Made by a program: the position numbers and the translations under genes | DNA from: a virus | Taxonomy: Duplodnaviria; Heunggongvirae; Uroviricota; Caudoviricetes | Strand: one strand, 5' to 3' | Length of the DNA: 27,269 nucleotides | Virus record (IMG/VR): IMGVR_UViG_2617270980_000004 | Coordinates: 1 to 27,269 of that record | Shown: positions 6,353-14,754 of the stretch, piece after piece | How positions within the stretch are numbered: the stretch's first letter is position 1 | How the letters are laid out: each line of letters opens with the position of its first letter | Notes under the pieces: generated by a model | Databases searched by the model: none | The model's input: the letters and a program-made list of their open reading frames with translations, nothing else | What the model was told of the DNA's origin: nothing

Positions 6353-7039
6353 ATGACCCCAATAAAAATATTTATGACTATTGCTGATTTCAAACGGCCT
6401 AAATTGGAACTCCCAAACGGGGCAAACAAACTACTACTGCACTCTTGCTGTGCTCCATGTTCCGGTGAAGTGATGGAGGCGCTTCAGGCCTCGGGAATCG
6501 ACTACACCATCTTTTTCTACAACCCGAACATTCATCCTCAGAAAGAGTATTTAATTCGTAAGGATGAAAATATTCGCTTTGCTGAACAACACGGCGTGCC
6601 GTTTATCGATGCTGATTACGACACCGACAACTGGTTTGAACGTGCCAAAGGAATGGAATGGGAGCCTGAGAGGGGGATCCGTTGTACCATGTGTTTTGAC
6701 ATGCGTTTTGAGCGGACAGCGTTGTACGCTGCTGAAAATGGTTTCAGTGTGATCAGCAGTTCACTGGGCATTTCACGCTGGAAAAATATGCAGCAGGTTA
6801 ACGAGTGTGGGCGGCGAGCTGTTGCGCATTATCCGGGTATGGTGTACTGGGATTATAACTGGCGCAAGCAGGGCGGCTCGTCCCGTATGATTGAAATCAG
6901 CAAGCGCGAAAAATTCTATCAGCAGGAATATTGTGGCTGTGTGTATTCTCTGCGCGATACCAATCTACACCGCAAATCTCAGGGACGCCCTCTTATCAAA
7001 ATTGGCCAACTCCACTACGGAAAAGAAGAGAAGGAGTGA
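6353..7039 (+). CDS. QueH-like (DUF208) Fe-S protein, epoxyqueuosine reductase family (assignment from recalled motifs)
   Basis: Conserved cysteine clusters [20 protein letters not shown] and QEYCGCVYS. No clear Shine-Dalgarno; alternative start at 6374. Extended -10-like TGcTACACT upstream. Confidence 0.55.
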
Positions 7040-7217
7040 TTTTATGGATCACCTTTCTGATTGATTTCATATTGGCGAGGTGACGTGAGTTAAGTAGAAT
7101 TGCTGCGGGTGCCTGAGGCTGTCTGCCTCAGGCATGAACACCAAAAGGCAGATAGAGAAAGCCCCAGTTAACATTACGCGTCCTGTAAGACGCTCAACAT
7201 TAATCTGAGGCATATGG

Positions 7218-8342
7218 ATGCGGATGAAAGAATTAAATAAATTCAGAGTGATAGACCTCTTTTGTGGGGCAGGTGGATTATCTTATGGTTTTCTTCATGG
7301 AGAGATGTCTGACTACTTTGAAAGTATCCTTGCTATTGATAATAATGCTGCAGCTATAAATACCTACAATGCCAATTTTGGTTTGCATGGAGTTCAGGCA
7401 AATATTGAGGAGTGGGCATCCAGCAATACTGTTCCTGAGGCTGATGTGGTCATAGGTGGCCCCCCGTGTCAGGGATTCAGTTTATTAAATAAGAATCGTT
7501 ATGGTGATCACCGAAGAGCATTGTGGGAGCCTTATATGGATGTCATTGAGCGTTCAAGGGCTTGTATGTTCGTCATGGAAAATGTCCCCGGATTGCTGAT
7601 AAGCGATGAGTTTGCGGACATTACGTTTAGAGCGAAATCCATGGGCTTTATTCTGCTTAATCCAATGGTGTTGAATACTGCTGACTATGGAGTACCTCAG
7701 ACAAGAAAACGAACGATAGCAATCGGTATCAAACGAGAACTCTTCGATGTGCATAGTATTCCGGCGTTCCCGCCAGCACCAACGCATCGTTCCCCTGATA
7801 AGGATGTCGCTTTGCCTGAATGGGTCTGTACGCGTGATGCAATTGGTGACTTACCTGCTCCTGTTGGAACTGATATTCGTAATGAACTTCCTCCGCTGAA
7901 CTTACATTTTGGGCGTAATCCCACACCTGTTTCTTTGGAGCGATATAAAGCGGTTCCACCAGGAGGTAACCGTTTCGATTTACAGAAAAAAAGACCTGAT
8001 ATAACCCCGGCGTGCTGGCTAAAAAAGAAATCTGGAGGGACCGATTTGTTTGGACGTCTGTGGTGGGACAGACCTTCAGTAACGATTCGTACTGAGTTTT
8101 TCAAACCGGAGAAAGGGCGATATTTACATCCGGAAGAGGATCGGCCAATAACTCATCGTGAGGCAGCGAGATTAATGTCTTTTCCTGATAATTTCATTTT
8201 TACCGGTTCAAAAACTGAGATTGCAAAGCAGATCGGGAATGCTGTTCCACCGCTATTTGCGGCAAAAATCGCACAATATGTGTATGGAGTTTTGCAGGGA
8301 CGGTATAAGAATAACATCAGTAAGAATAGTCAAGCAGCCTGA
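7218..8342 (+). CDS. DNA (cytosine-5)-methyltransferase
   Basis: Canonical m5C motifs: I FCGAGGLSYGF, IV GGPPCQGFS, VI ENV, VIII QTRKR, X GNAVPP. Confidence 0.9.
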   Translation: MRMKELNKFRVIDLFCGAGGLSYGFLHGEMSDYFESILAIDNNAAAINTYNANFGLHGVQANIEEWASSNTVPEADVVIGGPPCQGFSLLNKNRYGDHRRALWEPYMDVIERSRACMFVMENVPGLLISDEFADITFRAKSMGFILLNPMVLNTADYGVPQTRKRTIAIGIKRELFDVHSIPAFPPAPTHRSPDKDVALPEWVCTRDAIGDLPAPVGTDIRNELPPLNLHFGRNPTPVSLERYKAVPPGGNRFDLQKKRPDITPACWLKKKSGGTDLFGRLWWDRPSVTIRTEFFKPEKGRYLHPEEDRPITHREAARLMSFPDNFIFTGSKTEIAKQIGNAVPPLFAAKIAQYVYGVLQGRYKNNISKNSQAA

Positions 8343-8355
8343 AGGAAATCCAGAA

Positions 8356-9234
8356 ATGAATGGAGATTTGGTTGACAGCATAGTTGGTTTTGCTGAAGCC
8401 AGAAAGGAGTTTCATGCCCAATTGTTACTGAATACGCTCACAATTAATACTGCCGGAGTTGTTAGTAACGCAGATAGCAGTAACAAAAACAGTAAAGCTA
8501 TAGCAAGAGAAATTGCTCGCTTCTTGCAGGCTGAAACGATTGGTGAACGTGTTGCAGGGCAAACATCTGGTAATCAGTTTGAGAGTATCTGCGCAGAGTT
8601 TATAGAAAAAACCTTTTTTAAACTCAGCCACTTACGCCCTGGAAAATGGAATGTACATCAGGTTTCTGGTAGAAACAGATTAGAGATAGCTAAATATGAA
8701 CAATATGCCCATCTTATAGCATTGGATAGTGCTGCAAAAAGTAATCCTCAGCTAGCTGCTGCACTGGGGAGTGATTATACGATTTCACCAGATATTATTG
8801 TTGAAAGAGAACCTGAATGTGATCAAGTTATCAACAGTCCTGAATTACTGGTGGATGATTCTGTTACCCGCATGTCAGCTCTCAGGAGTTCGAATGGTGG
8901 GAAACCAATATTACACGCAAGTATTTCCTGCAAATGGACAATAAGAAGCGACCGGGCCCAGAATGCTCGTTCTGAGGCATTAAATCTTATTCGCAACCGT
9001 AAGGGAAATCTCCCTCATGTAATGGTTGTTACTGCTGAGCCTACTCCAAGTCGTCTGGCGTCTATTGCTCTTGGTACTGGTGATATAGATTGCGTGTATC
9101 ATTTTGCGCTTTATGAACTTATATCAGCAGTTGAAATACTGGGGCTCAGCGATGCAGCTGACATGCTTTCCGTGATGGTTAATGGTAAAAGATTAAAGGA
9201 TATTTCTGATCTTCCCTTGGATCTTGCAGTCTGA
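8356..9234 (+). CDS. type II restriction endonuclease, NgoMIV/Cfr10I-like (inferred from catalytic-motif spacing)
   Basis: Immediately downstream of the m5C methyltransferase; AAGGAAA Shine-Dalgarno. PD at residues 145-146, S-C-K at 191-193, E at 207; the D-to-K (47) and K-to-E (14) spacings match what I recall for NgoMIV (D140, K187, E201). Family assignment unverified. Confidence 0.55.
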   Translation: MNGDLVDSIVGFAEARKEFHAQLLLNTLTINTAGVVSNADSSNKNSKAIAREIARFLQAETIGERVAGQTSGNQFESICAEFIEKTFFKLSHLRPGKWNVHQVSGRNRLEIAKYEQYAHLIALDSAAKSNPQLAAALGSDYTISPDIIVEREPECDQVINSPELLVDDSVTRMSALRSSNGGKPILHASISCKWTIRSDRAQNARSEALNLIRNRKGNLPHVMVVTAEPTPSRLASIALGTGDIDCVYHFALYELISAVEILGLSDAADMLSVMVNGKRLKDISDLPLDLAV

Positions 9235-9306
9235 CATCTCTACGTAAATAGAGTCTGTCATATTTTAACTGTGATGGCACGTCATTGACTTCAGTACATT
9301 TTTACT

Positions 9307-9333
9307 AACCCGCTTCGCGGGTTTTGTTTTTTC
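9307..9333 (+). terminator. rho-independent terminator after the restriction-modification genes
   Basis: Stem AACCCGC/GCGGGTT with TTC loop, followed by TTTTGTTTTTT. Confidence 0.6.
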
Positions 9334-9404
9334 CTGGCATTCTGGTTTACAATCCACACGCCAGCCTGAACAACTGGCACCTGCTGCGCCAGCAGAGACA
9401 ACCG

Positions 9405-9683
9405 ATGGCGCACGATACCAAATTACACAATTCTGATGATTCTGCCGTCTTTGCCAGCAGGCACGGGCGGCGTTCCCGCACTTTCAAATCTGACTGGTTC
9501 CAGCATCCCCCATGCACTGAAGAACAGGCCGAATGGCTGATTCATAACTACCGCAGACGTGGATATGAGTTTAGGAAAGCCCTCACCCTCGATTATCGTC
9601 ACTGGATAATCTACGTCAGACTCCCTTATTCCGAACGCCCACCGCGTCCGTCCCGCACATTCCAGCAACGCATCTGGAGGTAA
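9405..9683 (+). CDS. hypothetical nin-region protein, 93 aa
   Basis: First ATG downstream of the terminator; stop overlaps the Shine-Dalgarno of the next gene. The ORF-track start at 9324 is rejected because it lies inside the terminator hairpin. Confidence 0.45.
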   Translation: MAHDTKLHNSDDSAVFASRHGRRSRTFKSDWFQHPPCTEEQAEWLIHNYRRRGYEFRKALTLDYRHWIIYVRLPYSERPPRPSRTFQQRIWR

Positions 9684-9684
9684 C

Positions 9685-10731
9685 GTGCGGGTATTACTTC
9701 GACCTGTTCTGGTACCGGAACTCGGGCTGGTGATCGTTAAGCCGGGCCGTGAATCCATGCCGGTATTCCACAATACCCGGGTACTGGTGGAGCCGGAACC
9801 GAAAAGCATGCGTAATCTGCCGTCCGGGGTCGTTCCTGTCGTTCGCCAGCCGCTGGCGGAGGATAAATCATTACTGCCATTTTTCAGCGACGAACGAGTG
9901 ATTCGTGCTGCTGGTGGCGCTGGCGCATTGTCTGACTGGTTACTGCGCCATGTTAAATCCTGCCAGTGGCCACACGGCGATTATCACCACAGTGAAACCG
10001 TCATTCACCGTTATGGTACCGGCGCAATGGTGTTGTGCTGGCACTGCGACAACCAGCTGCGCGACCAGACCTCCGAATCACTCGGGCAACTTGCTCACCA
10101 AAACCTGTCTGCATGGATGATTGACGTCATACGCCATGCAATGAATGGCTCGCAGGAACGGGAATTATCGCTGGCTGAATTATCCTGGTGGGCGGTCCGC
10201 AATCAGGTGGCGGACGCGCTACCGGAAGCGGTATTACGTCGTTCGCTGGGGTTGCGTGCGGAAAAAATCCGCTCAATGTACCGTGAAAGCGACATCGTAC
10301 CGGGAGAGCAGACCGCCACCAGCATACTGAAGCAGCGCACAAAAAATCTTGCGCCGCTGCCTCCCGCCCACCAGCAAACCCCGCCACAGGAAGAGACGGT
10401 GGTCAGCATTGCCGTTGATCCTGAGTCTCCGGAATCTTTCATGAAACGACCTAAACGTCGCCGCTGGGTTAACGAGAAATACACACGCTGGGTGAAGACA
10501 CAGCCGTGTGCGTGTTGTGGTAAGCCAGCCGACGATCCCCATCACCTGATTGGTCATGGTCAGGGCGGAATGGGGACAAAATCTCACGATATTTTCACGC
10601 TACCGCTGTGTCGGGAGCATCACAACGAGCTTCATGCGGATCCTCTGGCGTTCGAAGAAAAGCATGGTTCTCAGGTTGATTTAATTTTTCGTTTTCTTGA
10701 TCACGCCTTTGCAACTGGCGTGCTTGGGTAA
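9685..10731 (+). CDS. DUF968/YdfU-like phage protein with a C-terminal Cys/His-rich HNH-like zinc-binding module
   Basis: GTG start 5 nt after GGAGG; C-terminus CACCGKPADDPHHL...HDIFTLPLCREHHNELH. Confidence 0.7.
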   Translation: MRVLLRPVLVPELGLVIVKPGRESMPVFHNTRVLVEPEPKSMRNLPSGVVPVVRQPLAEDKSLLPFFSDERVIRAAGGAGALSDWLLRHVKSCQWPHGDYHHSETVIHRYGTGAMVLCWHCDNQLRDQTSESLGQLAHQNLSAWMIDVIRHAMNGSQERELSLAELSWWAVRNQVADALPEAVLRRSLGLRAEKIRSMYRESDIVPGEQTATSILKQRTKNLAPLPPAHQQTPPQEETVVSIAVDPESPESFMKRPKRRRWVNEKYTRWVKTQPCACCGKPADDPHHLIGHGQGGMGTKSHDIFTLPLCREHHNELHADPLAFEEKHGSQVDLIFRFLDHAFATGVLG

Positions 10732-10743
10732 AAGAGGTGACTG

Positions 10744-11118
10744 ATGCTCATAGATTTGGTTTTACCTTACCCGCCGACGGTGAACACTTACTGGCGACGC
10801 CGTGGCAGCACATATTTTATCTCGGAGGAGGGAAAGCGTTATCGCCGGGCTGTGGCGCTTATTGTTCGCCAGCAGCGGCTGAAATTAAGCCTGTCCGGAA
10901 GGCTGGCGATAAAGGTGATTGCAGAGCCACCGGATAAGCGTCGTCGCGACCTGGACAATATCCTGAAAGCACCGCTGGATGCGCTGACGCATGCGGGAGT
11001 GTTAATGGACGATGAGCAGTTTGATGAAATCAATATCGTTCGTGGTCAGCCAGTATCTGGTGGACGTATGGGGGTGAAGATTTACCCCATAATGCATGAA
11101 GAGCAGGTCAAAAAATGA
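10744..11118 (+). CDS. rusA: RusA-family Holliday junction resolvase
   Basis: RusA signature: N-terminal YPPTVNTYWRRRG and PDKRRRDLDNILKAPLDALTHAGV; AAGAGGTG Shine-Dalgarno. Confidence 0.85.
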   Translation: MLIDLVLPYPPTVNTYWRRRGSTYFISEEGKRYRRAVALIVRQQRLKLSLSGRLAIKVIAEPPDKRRRDLDNILKAPLDALTHAGVLMDDEQFDEINIVRGQPVSGGRMGVKIYPIMHEEQVKK

Positions 11119-11936
11119 AACTGGAAGATTTACCGAAATACTACTCCCCAAAATCCCCTGGCCTGACCGATGCATCGGCCTCAACGTCAAAAGATGCGCT
11201 GAGTATCACTGATGTGATGGCCGCGCAGGGCATGACACAGAATCGGGCTGAGATGGGGTTTTCTGCGTTCCTGGGGAAAATGGGCATCAGTATGAATGAC
11301 AGGGCGCGGGCAACAGAATTACTGGCAGATTATGCACTCAGTCGGTGCGATCGTGTGGCGGCGTTGAGAAAACTTCCGGCAGAAATAAAACCGGTAGTGA
11401 TGCGCATTATGGCTTCGTATGCGTTTGAAGATTATGCCCGTAGCGCGGCGAGCAAAAAACAGTGCCCCTGCTGTCACGGAAAAAAATTTATTGAAAGCGA
11501 GGTTTTTACAAACAAGATCCAGTATCCGGATGGTAAGCCACCAGTGTGGGCAAAGTGCACAAAAGGCGTGTATCCGTCTTACTGGGAAGAATGGAAAAAA
11601 GTCAGGGAGGTGGTAAAAGTTGCCTGTCCGGAGTGTGGCGGAAAGGGTGAGGTTTCCACCGCCTGTAAGGATTGCCGTGGGCGTGGTGTCGCCATTCATC
11701 GTGAAGAGTCGGTAAAACGTGGTATGCCTGTTATCAGAGATTGCCAGCGTTGTGGTGGTCGTGGCTGTGAAAGGCTGCCATCAACGGAGGCATTTAATGC
11801 CATATGCAAAGTGACGAGTGCTATCACGCTTGATACGTGGAAAAAATCAGTGAAACGCTTTTACGATACGTTGGTGGTTCGGTTTGACATTGAAGAGGCA
11901 TGGGCGGAGCGGCAGTTAAAGAGGGTAACGCGATAG
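11115..11936 (+). CDS. late-gene antiterminator Q (Cys-rich zinc-finger type)
   Basis: Start overlaps the rusA stop (ATGA); multiple CxxC pairs (CPCCHGKK, CPECGGKG, CKDCRGRG, CQRCGGRG); immediately upstream of a promoter plus terminator pair. Confidence 0.8.
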   Translation: MKLEDLPKYYSPKSPGLTDASASTSKDALSITDVMAAQGMTQNRAEMGFSAFLGKMGISMNDRARATELLADYALSRCDRVAALRKLPAEIKPVVMRIMASYAFEDYARSAASKKQCPCCHGKKFIESEVFTNKIQYPDGKPPVWAKCTKGVYPSYWEEWKKVREVVKVACPECGGKGEVSTACKDCRGRGVAIHREESVKRGMPVIRDCQRCGGRGCERLPSTEAFNAICKVTSAITLDTWKKSVKRFYDTLVVRFDIEEAWAERQLKRVTR

Positions 11937-12510: not shown

Positions 12511-13560
12511 ATGCTTAATACTGTAAAAATATCCAGTTGTGAGTTAATCAACGCCGACTGCCTGGAATTTATCCGGTCGTTACCCGAAAATTCTGTTGAC
12601 CTGATAGTCACGGACCCGCCGTACTTTAAAGTGAAGCCTGAAGGCTGGGATAACCAGTGGAAGGGCGACGATGATTACCTGAAGTGGCTGGACCAGTGTC
12701 TGGCGCAGTTCTGGCGGGTGCTGAAACCTGCCGGAAGTCTTTACCTGTTCTGTGGTCATCGCCTGGCATCTGATATCGAAATCATGATGCGTGAACGCTT
12801 CAGTGTGCTGAACCATATTATCTGGGCGAAGCCGTCCGGACGCTGGAACGGATGCAACAAGGAAAGCCTGCGGGCGTATTTCCCCGCCACAGAGCGCATT
12901 CTGTTCGCGGAACATTATCAGGGGCCGTATCGTCCGAAAGATGCCGGGTATGCGGCGAAGGGCAGTGCACTGAAACAGCATGTGATGGCCCCGCTGATTT
13001 CTTACTTTCGTGATGCGCGCGCGGCCCTGGGGATAACGGCAAAACAGATTGCAGATGTCACAGGAAAGAAAAACATGGTGTCGCACTGGTTCAGTGCCAG
13101 TCAGTGGCAGCTACCGAACGAAAGCGATTATCTGAAATTACAGTCGCTGTTTGCCCGGGTGGCAGAAGAGAAACATCAGCGCGGTGAACTGGAAAAGCCC
13201 CACCACCAGCTGGTGGATACGTATACGTCACTGAACCGGCAGTATGTGGAGCTGCAGAGTGAATATAAGCATCTGCGGCGGTATTTTGGTGTGACGGCGC
13301 AGGTGCCGTACACGGATGTGTGGACACATAAACCGGTGCAGTTCTATCCCGGGAAACATCCGTGCGAAAAACCGGCAGAAATGCTGCAGCAGATAATCAG
13401 CGCAAGCAGTCGTCCGGGTGACCTGGTTGCAGATTTTTTCATGGGGTCGGGTTCAACGGTAAAAGCGGCGATGGCACTGGGGCGTCGTGCGATTGGCGTT
13501 GAACTGGAGACCGGACGTTTTGAGCAGACAGTCAGGGAAGTTCAGGATTTAATCGTTTGA
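12511..13560 (+). CDS. DNA amino-methyltransferase (N6-adenine or N4-cytosine), DPPY family
   Basis: Motif IV DPPY near the N-terminus (LIVTDPPYF) and AdoMet-binding FMGSGST near the C-terminus, the beta-class order. Confidence 0.85.
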   Translation: MLNTVKISSCELINADCLEFIRSLPENSVDLIVTDPPYFKVKPEGWDNQWKGDDDYLKWLDQCLAQFWRVLKPAGSLYLFCGHRLASDIEIMMRERFSVLNHIIWAKPSGRWNGCNKESLRAYFPATERILFAEHYQGPYRPKDAGYAAKGSALKQHVMAPLISYFRDARAALGITAKQIADVTGKKNMVSHWFSASQWQLPNESDYLKLQSLFARVAEEKHQRGELEKPHHQLVDTYTSLNRQYVELQSEYKHLRRYFGVTAQVPYTDVWTHKPVQFYPGKHPCEKPAEMLQQIISASSRPGDLVADFFMGSGSTVKAAMALGRRAIGVELETGRFEQTVREVQDLIV

Positions 13561-13609: not shown

Positions 13610-13685
13610 GGCCCTTTAGCTCAGTGGTGAGAGCGAGCGACTCATAATCGCCAGGTCGCTGGTTCAAATCCAGCAAGGGCCACCA
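13610..13685 (+). tRNA. tRNA with CAU anticodon (resembles E. coli minor Ile tRNA ileX/ileZ by recall; Met not excluded)
   Basis: Cloverleaf folds by hand: acceptor GGCCCTT/AAGGGCC, D arm GCTC...GAGC, anticodon loop CTCATAA, T arm GCTGG TTCAAAT CCAGC, 3' CCA encoded. Confidence 0.85.
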
Positions 13686-13785: not shown

Positions 13786-13862
13786 GCGTTGTTAGCTCAG
13801 CCGGACAGAGCAATTGCCTTCTAAGCAATCGGTCACTGGTTCGAATCCAGTACAGCGCGCCA
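13786..13862 (+). tRNA. tRNA-Arg (anticodon UCU)
   Basis: Cloverleaf folds by hand: acceptor GCGTTGT/ACAGCGC, anticodon stem ATTGC/GCAAT with loop CTTCTAA, T arm ACTGG TTCGAAT CCAGT, 3' CCA encoded. Confidence 0.85.
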
Positions 13863-14326: not shown

Positions 14327-14717
14327 ATACATATCTGGATTATCACCGGTTACGGTAAAAAGTGATTGCTTACTGTTTTTGTGAATGGCATTGCAGCAGC
14401 CGGATAATGTCAGTGCTGGCTGACGGTGTGCTGGTGGCGGGGGTGGTGGTTGCTGCTTTCCCGTTGCTGAAAAAGAAAACGCCAGACTGTTAGCCGGGTA
14501 TCAGTTAGCGGGAGAAATTTTTAAATACTTCACAATTCAGGCGGTTGACTGTTGTCTGGTTTGCGGGGAGTTTGTTAAAAGAAACTGGCATGGTGAATCC
14601 CCCTGTGCGGAGGGGCAATCAGCGAGTAGGTATATGGGATAATCGCGGATTCAGGTGCTGGTACTGAATTCACCGGGAGGCACCCGGCACCATGCAATGG
14701 CACATAGCGCCACTCTC

Positions 14718-14754
14718 CAGCCCCTCTCCGGAGGGGCTGTTTATATTGATTTTG
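14718..14754 (+). terminator. strong rho-independent terminator in the cargo island
   Basis: Perfect 9-bp stem CAGCCCCTC/GAGGGGCTG with TCCG loop, followed by TTTATATTGATTTT. Confidence 0.6.

Follow-up and report, generated by a model that had tools for sequence, protein, structure and literature searches.

The locus analysed here, a pair of genes at positions 7218-9333 of a 27,269-nucleotide stretch of viral DNA (IMG/VR record IMGVR_UViG_2617270980_000004; hereafter the window, meaning that whole stretch), touches two kinds of described system. The first is the NgoMIV restriction-modification (R-M) system of Neisseria gonorrhoeae. Its nuclease is a member of the CCGG family, which is characterised by a permuted active site (PD-X46-53-K-X13-E) and an RXDR motif that reads the CCGG core, and for which Gln63, which makes a minor-groove contact in NgoMIV, has also been described (PMC3413111). 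The part played by the RSDR motif in reading CCGG is set out again in PMC5389614; in NgoMIV the outer G:C pair is read by D34 and R227, and E201 is catalytic (PMC5389614, PMC4652773). M.NgoAIV (M.NgoMIV) appears to methylate the first C, judged from a GTCGGC/GCCGGC Vsr substrate (PMC6116569). The second is hokW-sokW, a type I toxin-antitoxin locus of the Stx2 prophage Sp5: hokW mRNA is detected in lysogens before mitomycin C induction, the sokW -10 element (TAACCT) lies on the minus strand ~20 nt inside mok, and sokW RNA spans the mok start and its Shine-Dalgarno (SD) sequence (primers YO-421 and YO-422; Takada et al. 2021, PMC8621323).

The window appears to combine the two. It carries what reads as an intact two-gene Type II R-M operon, a methyltransferase gene (M) followed by an endonuclease gene (R); the operon is a moron of an Escherichia coli lambdoid prophage and lies in its nin region. 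The imported cassette has, on our alignments, replaced the coding core of a hokW/sokW-type toxin-antitoxin locus and left in place its promoter, a ~105-nt leader, the mok ribosome-binding site and the terminator. It is this placement, exactly where related phages have a hok/sok toxin-antitoxin, that is the unusual feature of the system. A full-text literature search found no paper on this prophage R-M system or on the replacement of hok, which is weak evidence of absence.

The two genes and their partnership

The product of R matches the Pfam family NgoMIV_restric (PF09015) over the entire profile (positions 1-275 of 275; E value 6e-127; 423 bits against a cut-off of 23.2) and the PADLOC model REase_II (8e-126). 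A preliminary description of the window, made from its letters and open reading frames (ORFs), had called for structural homology to restriction endonucleases; such homology was found in the PDB entries for NgoMIV (1FIU and 4ABT, E value 1e-118). BLASTP alignment with the crystallised R.NgoMIV gives 66% identity over 282 residues. The active site reads P145-D146, 46 residues, S191-C-K193, 13 residues, E207, equivalent to D140, S185, K187 and E201 of NgoMIV, and the PD...S-x-K...E arrangement and spacing noticed earlier are thus confirmed as PD-X46-K-X13-E. The CCGG reader R197-S-D-R200 aligns with R191-S-D-R194, and D40, Q69 and R233 correspond to D34, Q63 and R227, the readers of the outer G:C pair, all of which are kept. 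On these alignments R is an orthologue of NgoMIV and, because catalytic motif, RSDR reader and outer G:C readers are all retained, it is predicted to cut G/CCGGC; by analogy it would work as a homotetramer (Type IIF) that needs Mg2+ and engages two GCCGGC sites. The wider label first given to it, NgoMIV/Cfr10I-like, survives in its first half: no family member other than NgoMIV was matched in the PDB search at E values up to 1. Cfr10I, Bse634I and SgrAI do share the fold family, the permuted active-site motif and the RXDR reader of CCGG (PMC3413111), but they take degenerate or longer sites without the outer-pair contact network of NgoMIV, and R did not match them in that search.

M is a 5-methylcytosine (m5C) methyltransferase, as had been claimed. 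It matches the Pfam family DNA_methylase (E value 4e-54 over residues 9-353) and the TIGR00675 model dcm (5e-45), and the motifs DLFCGAGG, GGPPCQGFS, MENVPGL, VPQTRKR, REAARLMSFPD and GNAVPP can be read directly in its sequence, so that motifs I (FxGxG), IV (PCQ), VI (ENV), VIII (QxRxR), IX and X of the C5 enzymes are all represented. RefSeq places its start at 7224, in frame and two codons downstream of 7218 (WP_001427299.1, 372 amino acids (aa)); the Klebsiella homologue supports 7224, which is therefore probably the ancestral start. The ATG at 7218 sits 7 nt past the mok SD sequence.

The stop codon of M closes at 8342 and R opens with an ATG at 8356; the spacer has precisely the 13 bp first reported (8343-8355), and R has its own SD sequence within it (AGGA, 8344-8347). 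All the elements described earlier lie at their stated positions, and none of them is a product of chance. The two genes are adjacent and co-oriented, and the equal divergence of an orthologous Klebsiella pair (see below) indicates that they are inherited and kept together, as expected of a Type II system. Since profile, PDB, PADLOC and RefSeq annotation all concur, the proposal of a Type II R-M module with an NgoMIV/Cfr10I-family nuclease is upheld; its position in the nin region is likewise confirmed by replication genes on one side and DUF968, RusA and Q on the other. This core claim is right but not new: the identity of the pair is already recorded by the automatic RefSeq/NCBI pipeline, where PGAP labels the products 'DNA cytosine methyltransferase' and 'NgoMIV family type II restriction endonuclease', and identical proteins (WP_001427299.1 and WP_001012717.1) are so labelled in 60 complete genomes.

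The authentic NgoMIV locus of N. gonorrhoeae, taken from the PLSDB records NZ_CP119142.1 and NZ_CP119140.1, resembles the window in the nuclease (66% over 282 residues, same length class, same active site and readers) and in the order M then R on one strand. (Both records, of 2.17 Mb, are filed as 'plasmids'; their size suggests chromosomes.) It differs in that the R start there directly follows the M stop, in that the gonococcal locus is chromosomal whereas the pair here lies in a prophage at a hok locus, and above all in the methyltransferase: M.NgoMIV has 312 aa, as against 374 here, and is 22% identical, the likeness being confined to the common catalytic motifs with no similarity in the variable region. 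When one genome was scanned for each species, more than 512 relatives of R were found, the closest of which (77-78% identical) are in Halopseudomonas, Pseudomonas and Pigmentiphaga. Most of the best 80 R loci have an m5C methyltransferase near R on the same strand, but these enzymes score ~76-87 bits against M of the window, compared with 699 bits for the Klebsiella orthologue. M is orthologous neither to M.NgoMIV nor to the methyltransferases beside the closest R homologues; it evidently belongs to a different lineage and is not an NgoMIV-type partner.

Relatives of M that are 66-81% identical, the whole variable (target-recognition) region included, occur in Enterobacterales and other Gammaproteobacteria. 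The 120 best homologues bear generic names only and the closest PDB entries (3G7U, M.HaeIII and M.HhaI) are distant; no characterised close relative was found among these homologues and PDB matches. The nucleases that accompany this lineage are of two kinds. In prophages of Klebsiella michiganensis an NgoMIV-family nuclease lies downstream of the M orthologue, whereas in Yersinia kristensenii and Edwardsiella tarda the downstream gene encodes an unrelated HNH nuclease that matches the generic HNH domain only. The Yersinia and Edwardsiella nucleases (326-330 aa) are encoded by genes that overlap the methylase gene, and the likeness of their methylases to M extends through the variable region. 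This distribution suggests that two unrelated nucleases serve one methylase specificity. Because the M lineage is unlike the M.NgoMIV-type partners and is elsewhere paired with HNH nucleases, the pair in the window appears to be a hybrid of two lineages.

Given so distant a likeness to M.NgoMIV, homology does not fix the exact target of M; survival of the lysogen would nevertheless require M to methylate a cytosine that lies in GCCGGC or in a site overlapping it. Alternatively, the pair might be real but have another, related site for its nuclease or methylase, RCCGGY or CCGG for example: the target-recognition region of M is unrelated to that of M.NgoMIV and is found elsewhere with another class of nuclease, and Cfr10I and Bse634I read RCCGGY with the same fold (PMC3413111). 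We regard this as a minor possibility, since R is 66% identical to NgoMIV and keeps the equivalents of D34, Q63 and R227, which impose a strict outer G:C pair and which Bse634I lacks; moreover, a methylase of broader specificity would remain compatible with a GCCGGC-specific nuclease. The failure of M to be orthologous to M.NgoMIV lowers the claim that this is the NgoMIV system, not the claim that it works like the NgoMIV system.

Three K. michiganensis prophage loci (L207-L209) contain orthologues of both genes in the same order and in the same nin-region slot before DUF968. They differ from the window in a 9-bp gap between M and R and in having no hok leader upstream (no Rfam hit and no BLAST match), but an AT-rich upstream region of their own after a dinI-like gene; a 130-aa LexA_DNA_bind protein stands in place of the 92-aa ORF that follows the slot in E. 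coli. Between the E. coli and Klebsiella pairs amino acid identity is 79.5% for M and 79% for R, and nucleotide identity across both genes is 72%; for R the non-synonymous divergence (dN) is 0.15, synonymous divergence (dS) is saturated and dN/dS is ~0.05. Because 28% nucleotide divergence has left ~79% protein identity, with so low a dN/dS in R, the partnership appears to be old and functional, the two genes having co-diverged under purifying selection. The same figures bear on the idea that the locus serves as an orphan methylase only, its nuclease having lost activity or the whole system being in decay. The 60 E. coli copies, which are 99-100% identical, are indeed too recent to reveal selection by themselves, but both ORFs are full length with every catalytic and recognition residue intact, and the strong purifying selection on R seen across the Klebsiella comparison makes decay highly improbable.

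The hok-type frame around the cassette

Alignment of the window to hok loci defines the borders of the imported DNA. Homology ends abruptly at 7211 and returns at ~9303-9306, just ahead of the terminator stem; between these points the G+C content is 40-47%, compared with 50-57% in the flanks. Leader end and terminator are separated by 287-292 nt where hok is present and by 2,095 nt in the R-M loci.

Upstream, many lambdoid and Rac-like phages and ~3,900 E. coli genomes share the segment 7042-7211 at 90-96% identity. The leader itself is 90-96% identical at the nucleotide level to the sequence directly 5′ of mok/hok in HannyBb, Rac-SA53, E2348/69 and O157 PV15-279, where the genes that follow are annotated as 'MokW-like' (HannyBb), mok and hok (Rac-SA53) or 'hokD' (E2348/69 and PV15-279), and it precedes mok/hok in ~95% of related loci. 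Position 1 of the Rfam model RF01794, the hok mRNA +1, falls at 7107, 7 nt past the -10 hexamer, and the leader ends in the mok SD sequence (GAGG, 7207-7210, within CTGAGGC ending at 7211). RF01794 scores 61 bits in the window (gathering score 59), 61 bits in another R-M contig and 117 bits in an intact hok locus. The nominal span of this match is 7107-7287, but only model positions 1 to ~88 are genuinely matched; a complete hok leader or Sok gene, as the Rfam 'sok' span might imply, was rejected, since past 7211 the alignment is of low quality and forced into the M gene.

The promoter hexamers upstream of the leader are invariant in aligned hok loci despite divergent surroundings, and are kept in many, though not all, of 72 leader variants. 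This call rests on conservation and hok homology because the promoter scan as a whole did not exceed the yield of shuffled sequence. A second promoter-like site at 7318-7346 (10/12 matches) was not relied on: it lies in AT-rich coding sequence, and the scan is at chance level.

The hairpin that the preliminary description had seen upstream of the pair, and had offered as its possible regulator, is present where it was reported: the core GCCTGAGGC (7111-7119) pairs with GCCTCAGGC (7125-7133) around a loop at 7120-7124. It is kept in hok leaders with wobble-compatible variation, CU[A/G]UCUGCC covarying with GGCAGA[U/C]AG. It is, by this homology, the conserved 5′ hairpin of a hokW-type mRNA leader (RF01794), one that precedes mok/hok in nearly all related loci, and the idea of an R-M-specific regulator does not stand. 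All R-M-bearing loci have a single leader variant that differs from the nearest hok-associated leader by five private substitutions (7113, 7121 and ~7160-7196). The U-to-C change at 7113 perfects the 5′ hairpin and would break the pairing of that position with the fbi (fold-back inhibition) element, with which the tac-equivalent 5′ end of the leader pairs in hok mRNAs.

Downstream, a terminator does follow the pair, as had been noted, but it is not the cassette's own. Of 5,426 E. coli genomes, 1,811 contain a 41-nt segment that includes it (9306-9346; ~97.6% identity), whereas the cassette is found in 60; in E2348/69 and PV15-279 the segment lies ~66 nt after the hok stop, directly past an fbi-like element. 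It thus belongs to the phage backbone and hok locus and not to the imported DNA.

What has gone from the hok locus is its coding and regulatory core. Directly ahead of the terminator, aligned hok loci have the sequence CCTCAACGCACCCGCA, which is taken to be the fbi element because it is complementary to the 5′ end, TGCGGGTGCTTGAGG; alignment shows it to be absent from the window. The position of the sokW -10 falls in replaced DNA and the sok promoter has therefore been lost in cis; the promoter scan found no minus-strand promoter-like site at 7212-7400. No Hok-like ORF is listed on either strand of the window, and neither a 48-aa minus-strand ORF (7067-7213) nor a 24-codon plus-strand ORF, both considered as Hok peptides, has Hok features. 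Compared with hokW-sokW of Sp5 (PMC8621323) and the hok/sok family (RF01794), the R-M pair occupies the same slot upstream of the 92-aa ORF, DUF968, RusA and Q; it retains promoter, leader to the mok SD and terminator at 90-96% identity, but lacks mok, hok, the sok promoter and fbi, the remnant being left as an expression platform. With the leader of the family and without its mok/hok frames, sok promoter or fbi, the locus is best classed as a hok remnant and not as a hok/sok toxin-antitoxin.

The generality of the swap was surveyed with an exact search of IMG/VR for the 16-mer that closes the leader on its 3′ side; the DNA beyond it was classified in ~120 stretches, together with fetched loci. 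In 116 the leader is followed by hok; in four viral contigs (L122, L144, L156 and L183) it is followed by this R-M pair at an identical junction. No other cargo fused at the leader SD was found among the ~120 stretches, and the notion of a general docking site behind the hok leader was rejected, only hok or this R-M pair following the SD in the survey. Two longer spacings between leader and terminator turned out to be hok plus extra genes, either an insertion sequence (IS) with relBE or additional ORFs. In both contigs (L142, 9228-12832, and L149, minus strand) leader and terminator are far apart. One has a large ORF, read as a putative IS transposase, and relB/relE-like genes ahead of hok, in a Qin-like relBEF arrangement; in the other hok is followed by extra membrane-protein-like ORFs.

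Because the R-M loci share one leader variant and an identical junction, while the cassette is found in prophages at differing chromosomal sites, the data look like a single replacement event that was later spread by phage recombination. In strain B-1109 (NZ_CP117971) the cassette is beside tRNA-Ser and mtfA; in strain 9000 (NZ_CP018252) the neighbourhood is another. Both ORFs were found in 60 of 5,426 complete E. coli genomes, 59 of these at at least 99% identity, and many of the listed carriers are bovine or human O157:H7 isolates. Isolated phages in INPHARED yielded no instance of the M-R pair, and relatives of R on plasmids reach no more than 79% identity. The prophage is a mosaic: of the complete E. 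coli genomes, none matches the window over its whole length, and the best covers 77% of it at 97% identity.

Expression and function in the lysogen

The account that we favour, with a probability of about 0.78, is of an NgoMIV-type R-M operon on a captured hok promoter, leader, SD and terminator that provides restriction and addiction in the lysogen. Under it the most likely consequence of the capture would be constitutive transcription of M and R in the lysogen from the hok promoter, which is judged to be active in uninduced lysogens from the hokW mRNA signal that precedes mitomycin C (PMC8621323). Translation of M would begin at 7218, using the captured mok SD, or at the ancestral ATG (7224), and that of R would use its own AGGA. 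No Sok antisense RNA would be made in cis, and without the sok promoter and fbi the hok-style post-transcriptional lock would be disabled in cis.

No controller (C-protein) gene was seen in the ORF listing: the cassette (7212-9303) consists of M, the 13-bp spacer, R and ~70 nt of 3′ sequence, with no further ORF free of overlap by M or R. The system does not belong to the C-protein-controlled R-M systems. Safe establishment would depend on M preceding R and on the need of NgoMIV-type tetramers for two sites. The outcome would be restriction of unmethylated DNA bearing GCCGGC and post-segregational killing upon loss of the prophage. The R-M pair would thus have taken over from hok/sok as addiction module, in an equally selfish stabilising role, and would in addition restrict unmethylated DNA that enters the cell. 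The roles in defence and addiction proposed in the preliminary description are plausible.

Several observations weigh against this account. The variable region of M is unrelated to that of M.NgoMIV and its close relatives pair with HNH nucleases, so that homology does not set the target. GCCGGC is only mildly under-represented in the window (5 observed against 7.5 expected from mononucleotide or 12.5 from Markov composition), which tells little either way. The promoter scan found 6 sites where 6.7 are expected in shuffled sequence. In the predicted minimum-energy fold the SD and start region are base-paired to the upstream leader, and translation of M from the mok SD could be inefficient. Finally, in many E. 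coli strains an m5C product may be a target of McrBC or McrA.

The promoter scan at chance level and the predicted sequestration of the SD and start region would also fit a different scheme, in which R-M is silent in the lysogen and is expressed only by antiterminated early-right read-through in lytic growth, the hok promoter and leader being inert; its roles could then be, for example, to mark progeny DNA or to degrade host or competitor DNA. The cassette, which belongs to the nin region, does follow the replication genes in the same orientation. We nonetheless consider lytic-only expression unlikely: the hok promoter hexamers, invariant in aligned hok loci, are intact in the window, hokW mRNA is present in uninduced Sp5 lysogens (PMC8621323), and an R-M system made only late would at once cut unmethylated host and phage DNA.

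A further and distinctly doubtful proposal is that the retained hok leader still controls the M-R mRNA, either via Sok RNAs acting in trans or via the strengthened 5′ hairpin, which would set the timing or level of M relative to R. Carrier genomes contain up to 6-7 places that match the query, mostly leader-segment matches, and the source of a trans-acting Sok may be sibling hokW-type loci in the same polylysogen. Were this true, it would place an R-M system under a type I antitoxin RNA or hok-style mRNA folding instead of a C protein.

Neighbouring genes and significance

The features of the locus and its neighbours are collected in Table 1. Directly upstream of the hok leader is a gene for a QueH-type epoxyqueuosine reductase (PF02677, E value 1e-65), a tRNA-modification enzyme as phage cargo, which has the same RefSeq annotation in carrier genomes and a homologous ORF in HannyBb. 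Downstream, the conserved ORF for a hypothetical protein and its DUF968 partner come after the slot, whether it holds hok or R-M, in the E. coli loci and in HannyBb. Beyond Q are a second DNA methyltransferase gene, of N6-adenine/N4 type, two tRNA genes and an STnc100 small RNA (sRNA). The second methyltransferase, which bears the annotation 'DNA-methyltransferase' in strain 9000, is matched in part by NCBIfam PRK11524 and CcrM; two methylases are thus encoded on the prophage.

Table 1. Positions of the features discussed (window coordinates unless a locus is named).
Feature	Position	Strand	Details
QueH-type epoxyqueuosine reductase gene	6353-7039	+	
Putative M-R promoter, hok-type sigma-70	7072-7100	+	TTGGCG, 17-nt spacer, TAGAAT; 9/12 matches in promoter scan
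hok mRNA 5′ leader remnant	7107-7211	+	RF01794; 5′ tac-equivalent end, stem CUGUCUGCC/GGCAGAUAG, part of Sok target
Hairpin of the preliminary description	7109-7135	+	11-bp stem, 5-nt loop; -22.3 kcal/mol, z = -5.3 against shuffles
Probable imported R-M cassette, ~2.09 kb	7212 to ~9303	+	Replaces ~280 bp (mok/hok, sok promoter, fbi); break in hok-locus homology, composition
m5C DNA methyltransferase gene (M)	7218-8342	+	374 aa; PF00145, TIGR00675, PADLOC MTase_II
NgoMIV-family Type II restriction endonuclease gene (R)	8356-9234	+	292 aa; PF09015 full length, PDB 1FIU, PADLOC
Intrinsic terminator	9307-9333	+	7-bp stem AACCCGC/GCGGGTT at 9307-9323, then TTTTGTTTTTT; terminator scan
Conserved hypothetical protein gene	9405-9683	+	92 aa; no family match
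DUF968 protein gene	9685-10731	+	Weak HNHc_6 match
Q antiterminator gene	11115-11936		
Second DNA methyltransferase gene	12511-13560	+	349 aa
tRNA-Met (CAT) gene	13610-13685	+	
tRNA-Arg (TCT) gene	13786-13862	+	
STnc100 sRNA	14559-14748	+	Rfam, 132 bits
M relative and HNH nuclease, Yersinia kristensenii	L210 4001-6092		Methylase 72-75% identical to M of the window
M relative and HNH nuclease, Edwardsiella tarda	L211/L212 4001-6068		Methylase 72-75% identical to M of the window

As an R-M system the pair is routine: the family is structurally characterised and the proteins have already been named. Its carriage by ~1% of complete E. coli genomes has practical relevance: such strains should gain an m5C mark, and transformation, plasmids and phages should meet a barrier at GCCGGC, with possible effects on strain engineering, on susceptibility to phages and on how methylomes are read. 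The modest evolutionary point is the exchange itself: at one phage slot hok/sok, a selfish stabilisation module, has been cleanly swapped for another such module, an R-M system, with the resident promoter, leader, ribosome-binding site and terminator re-used.

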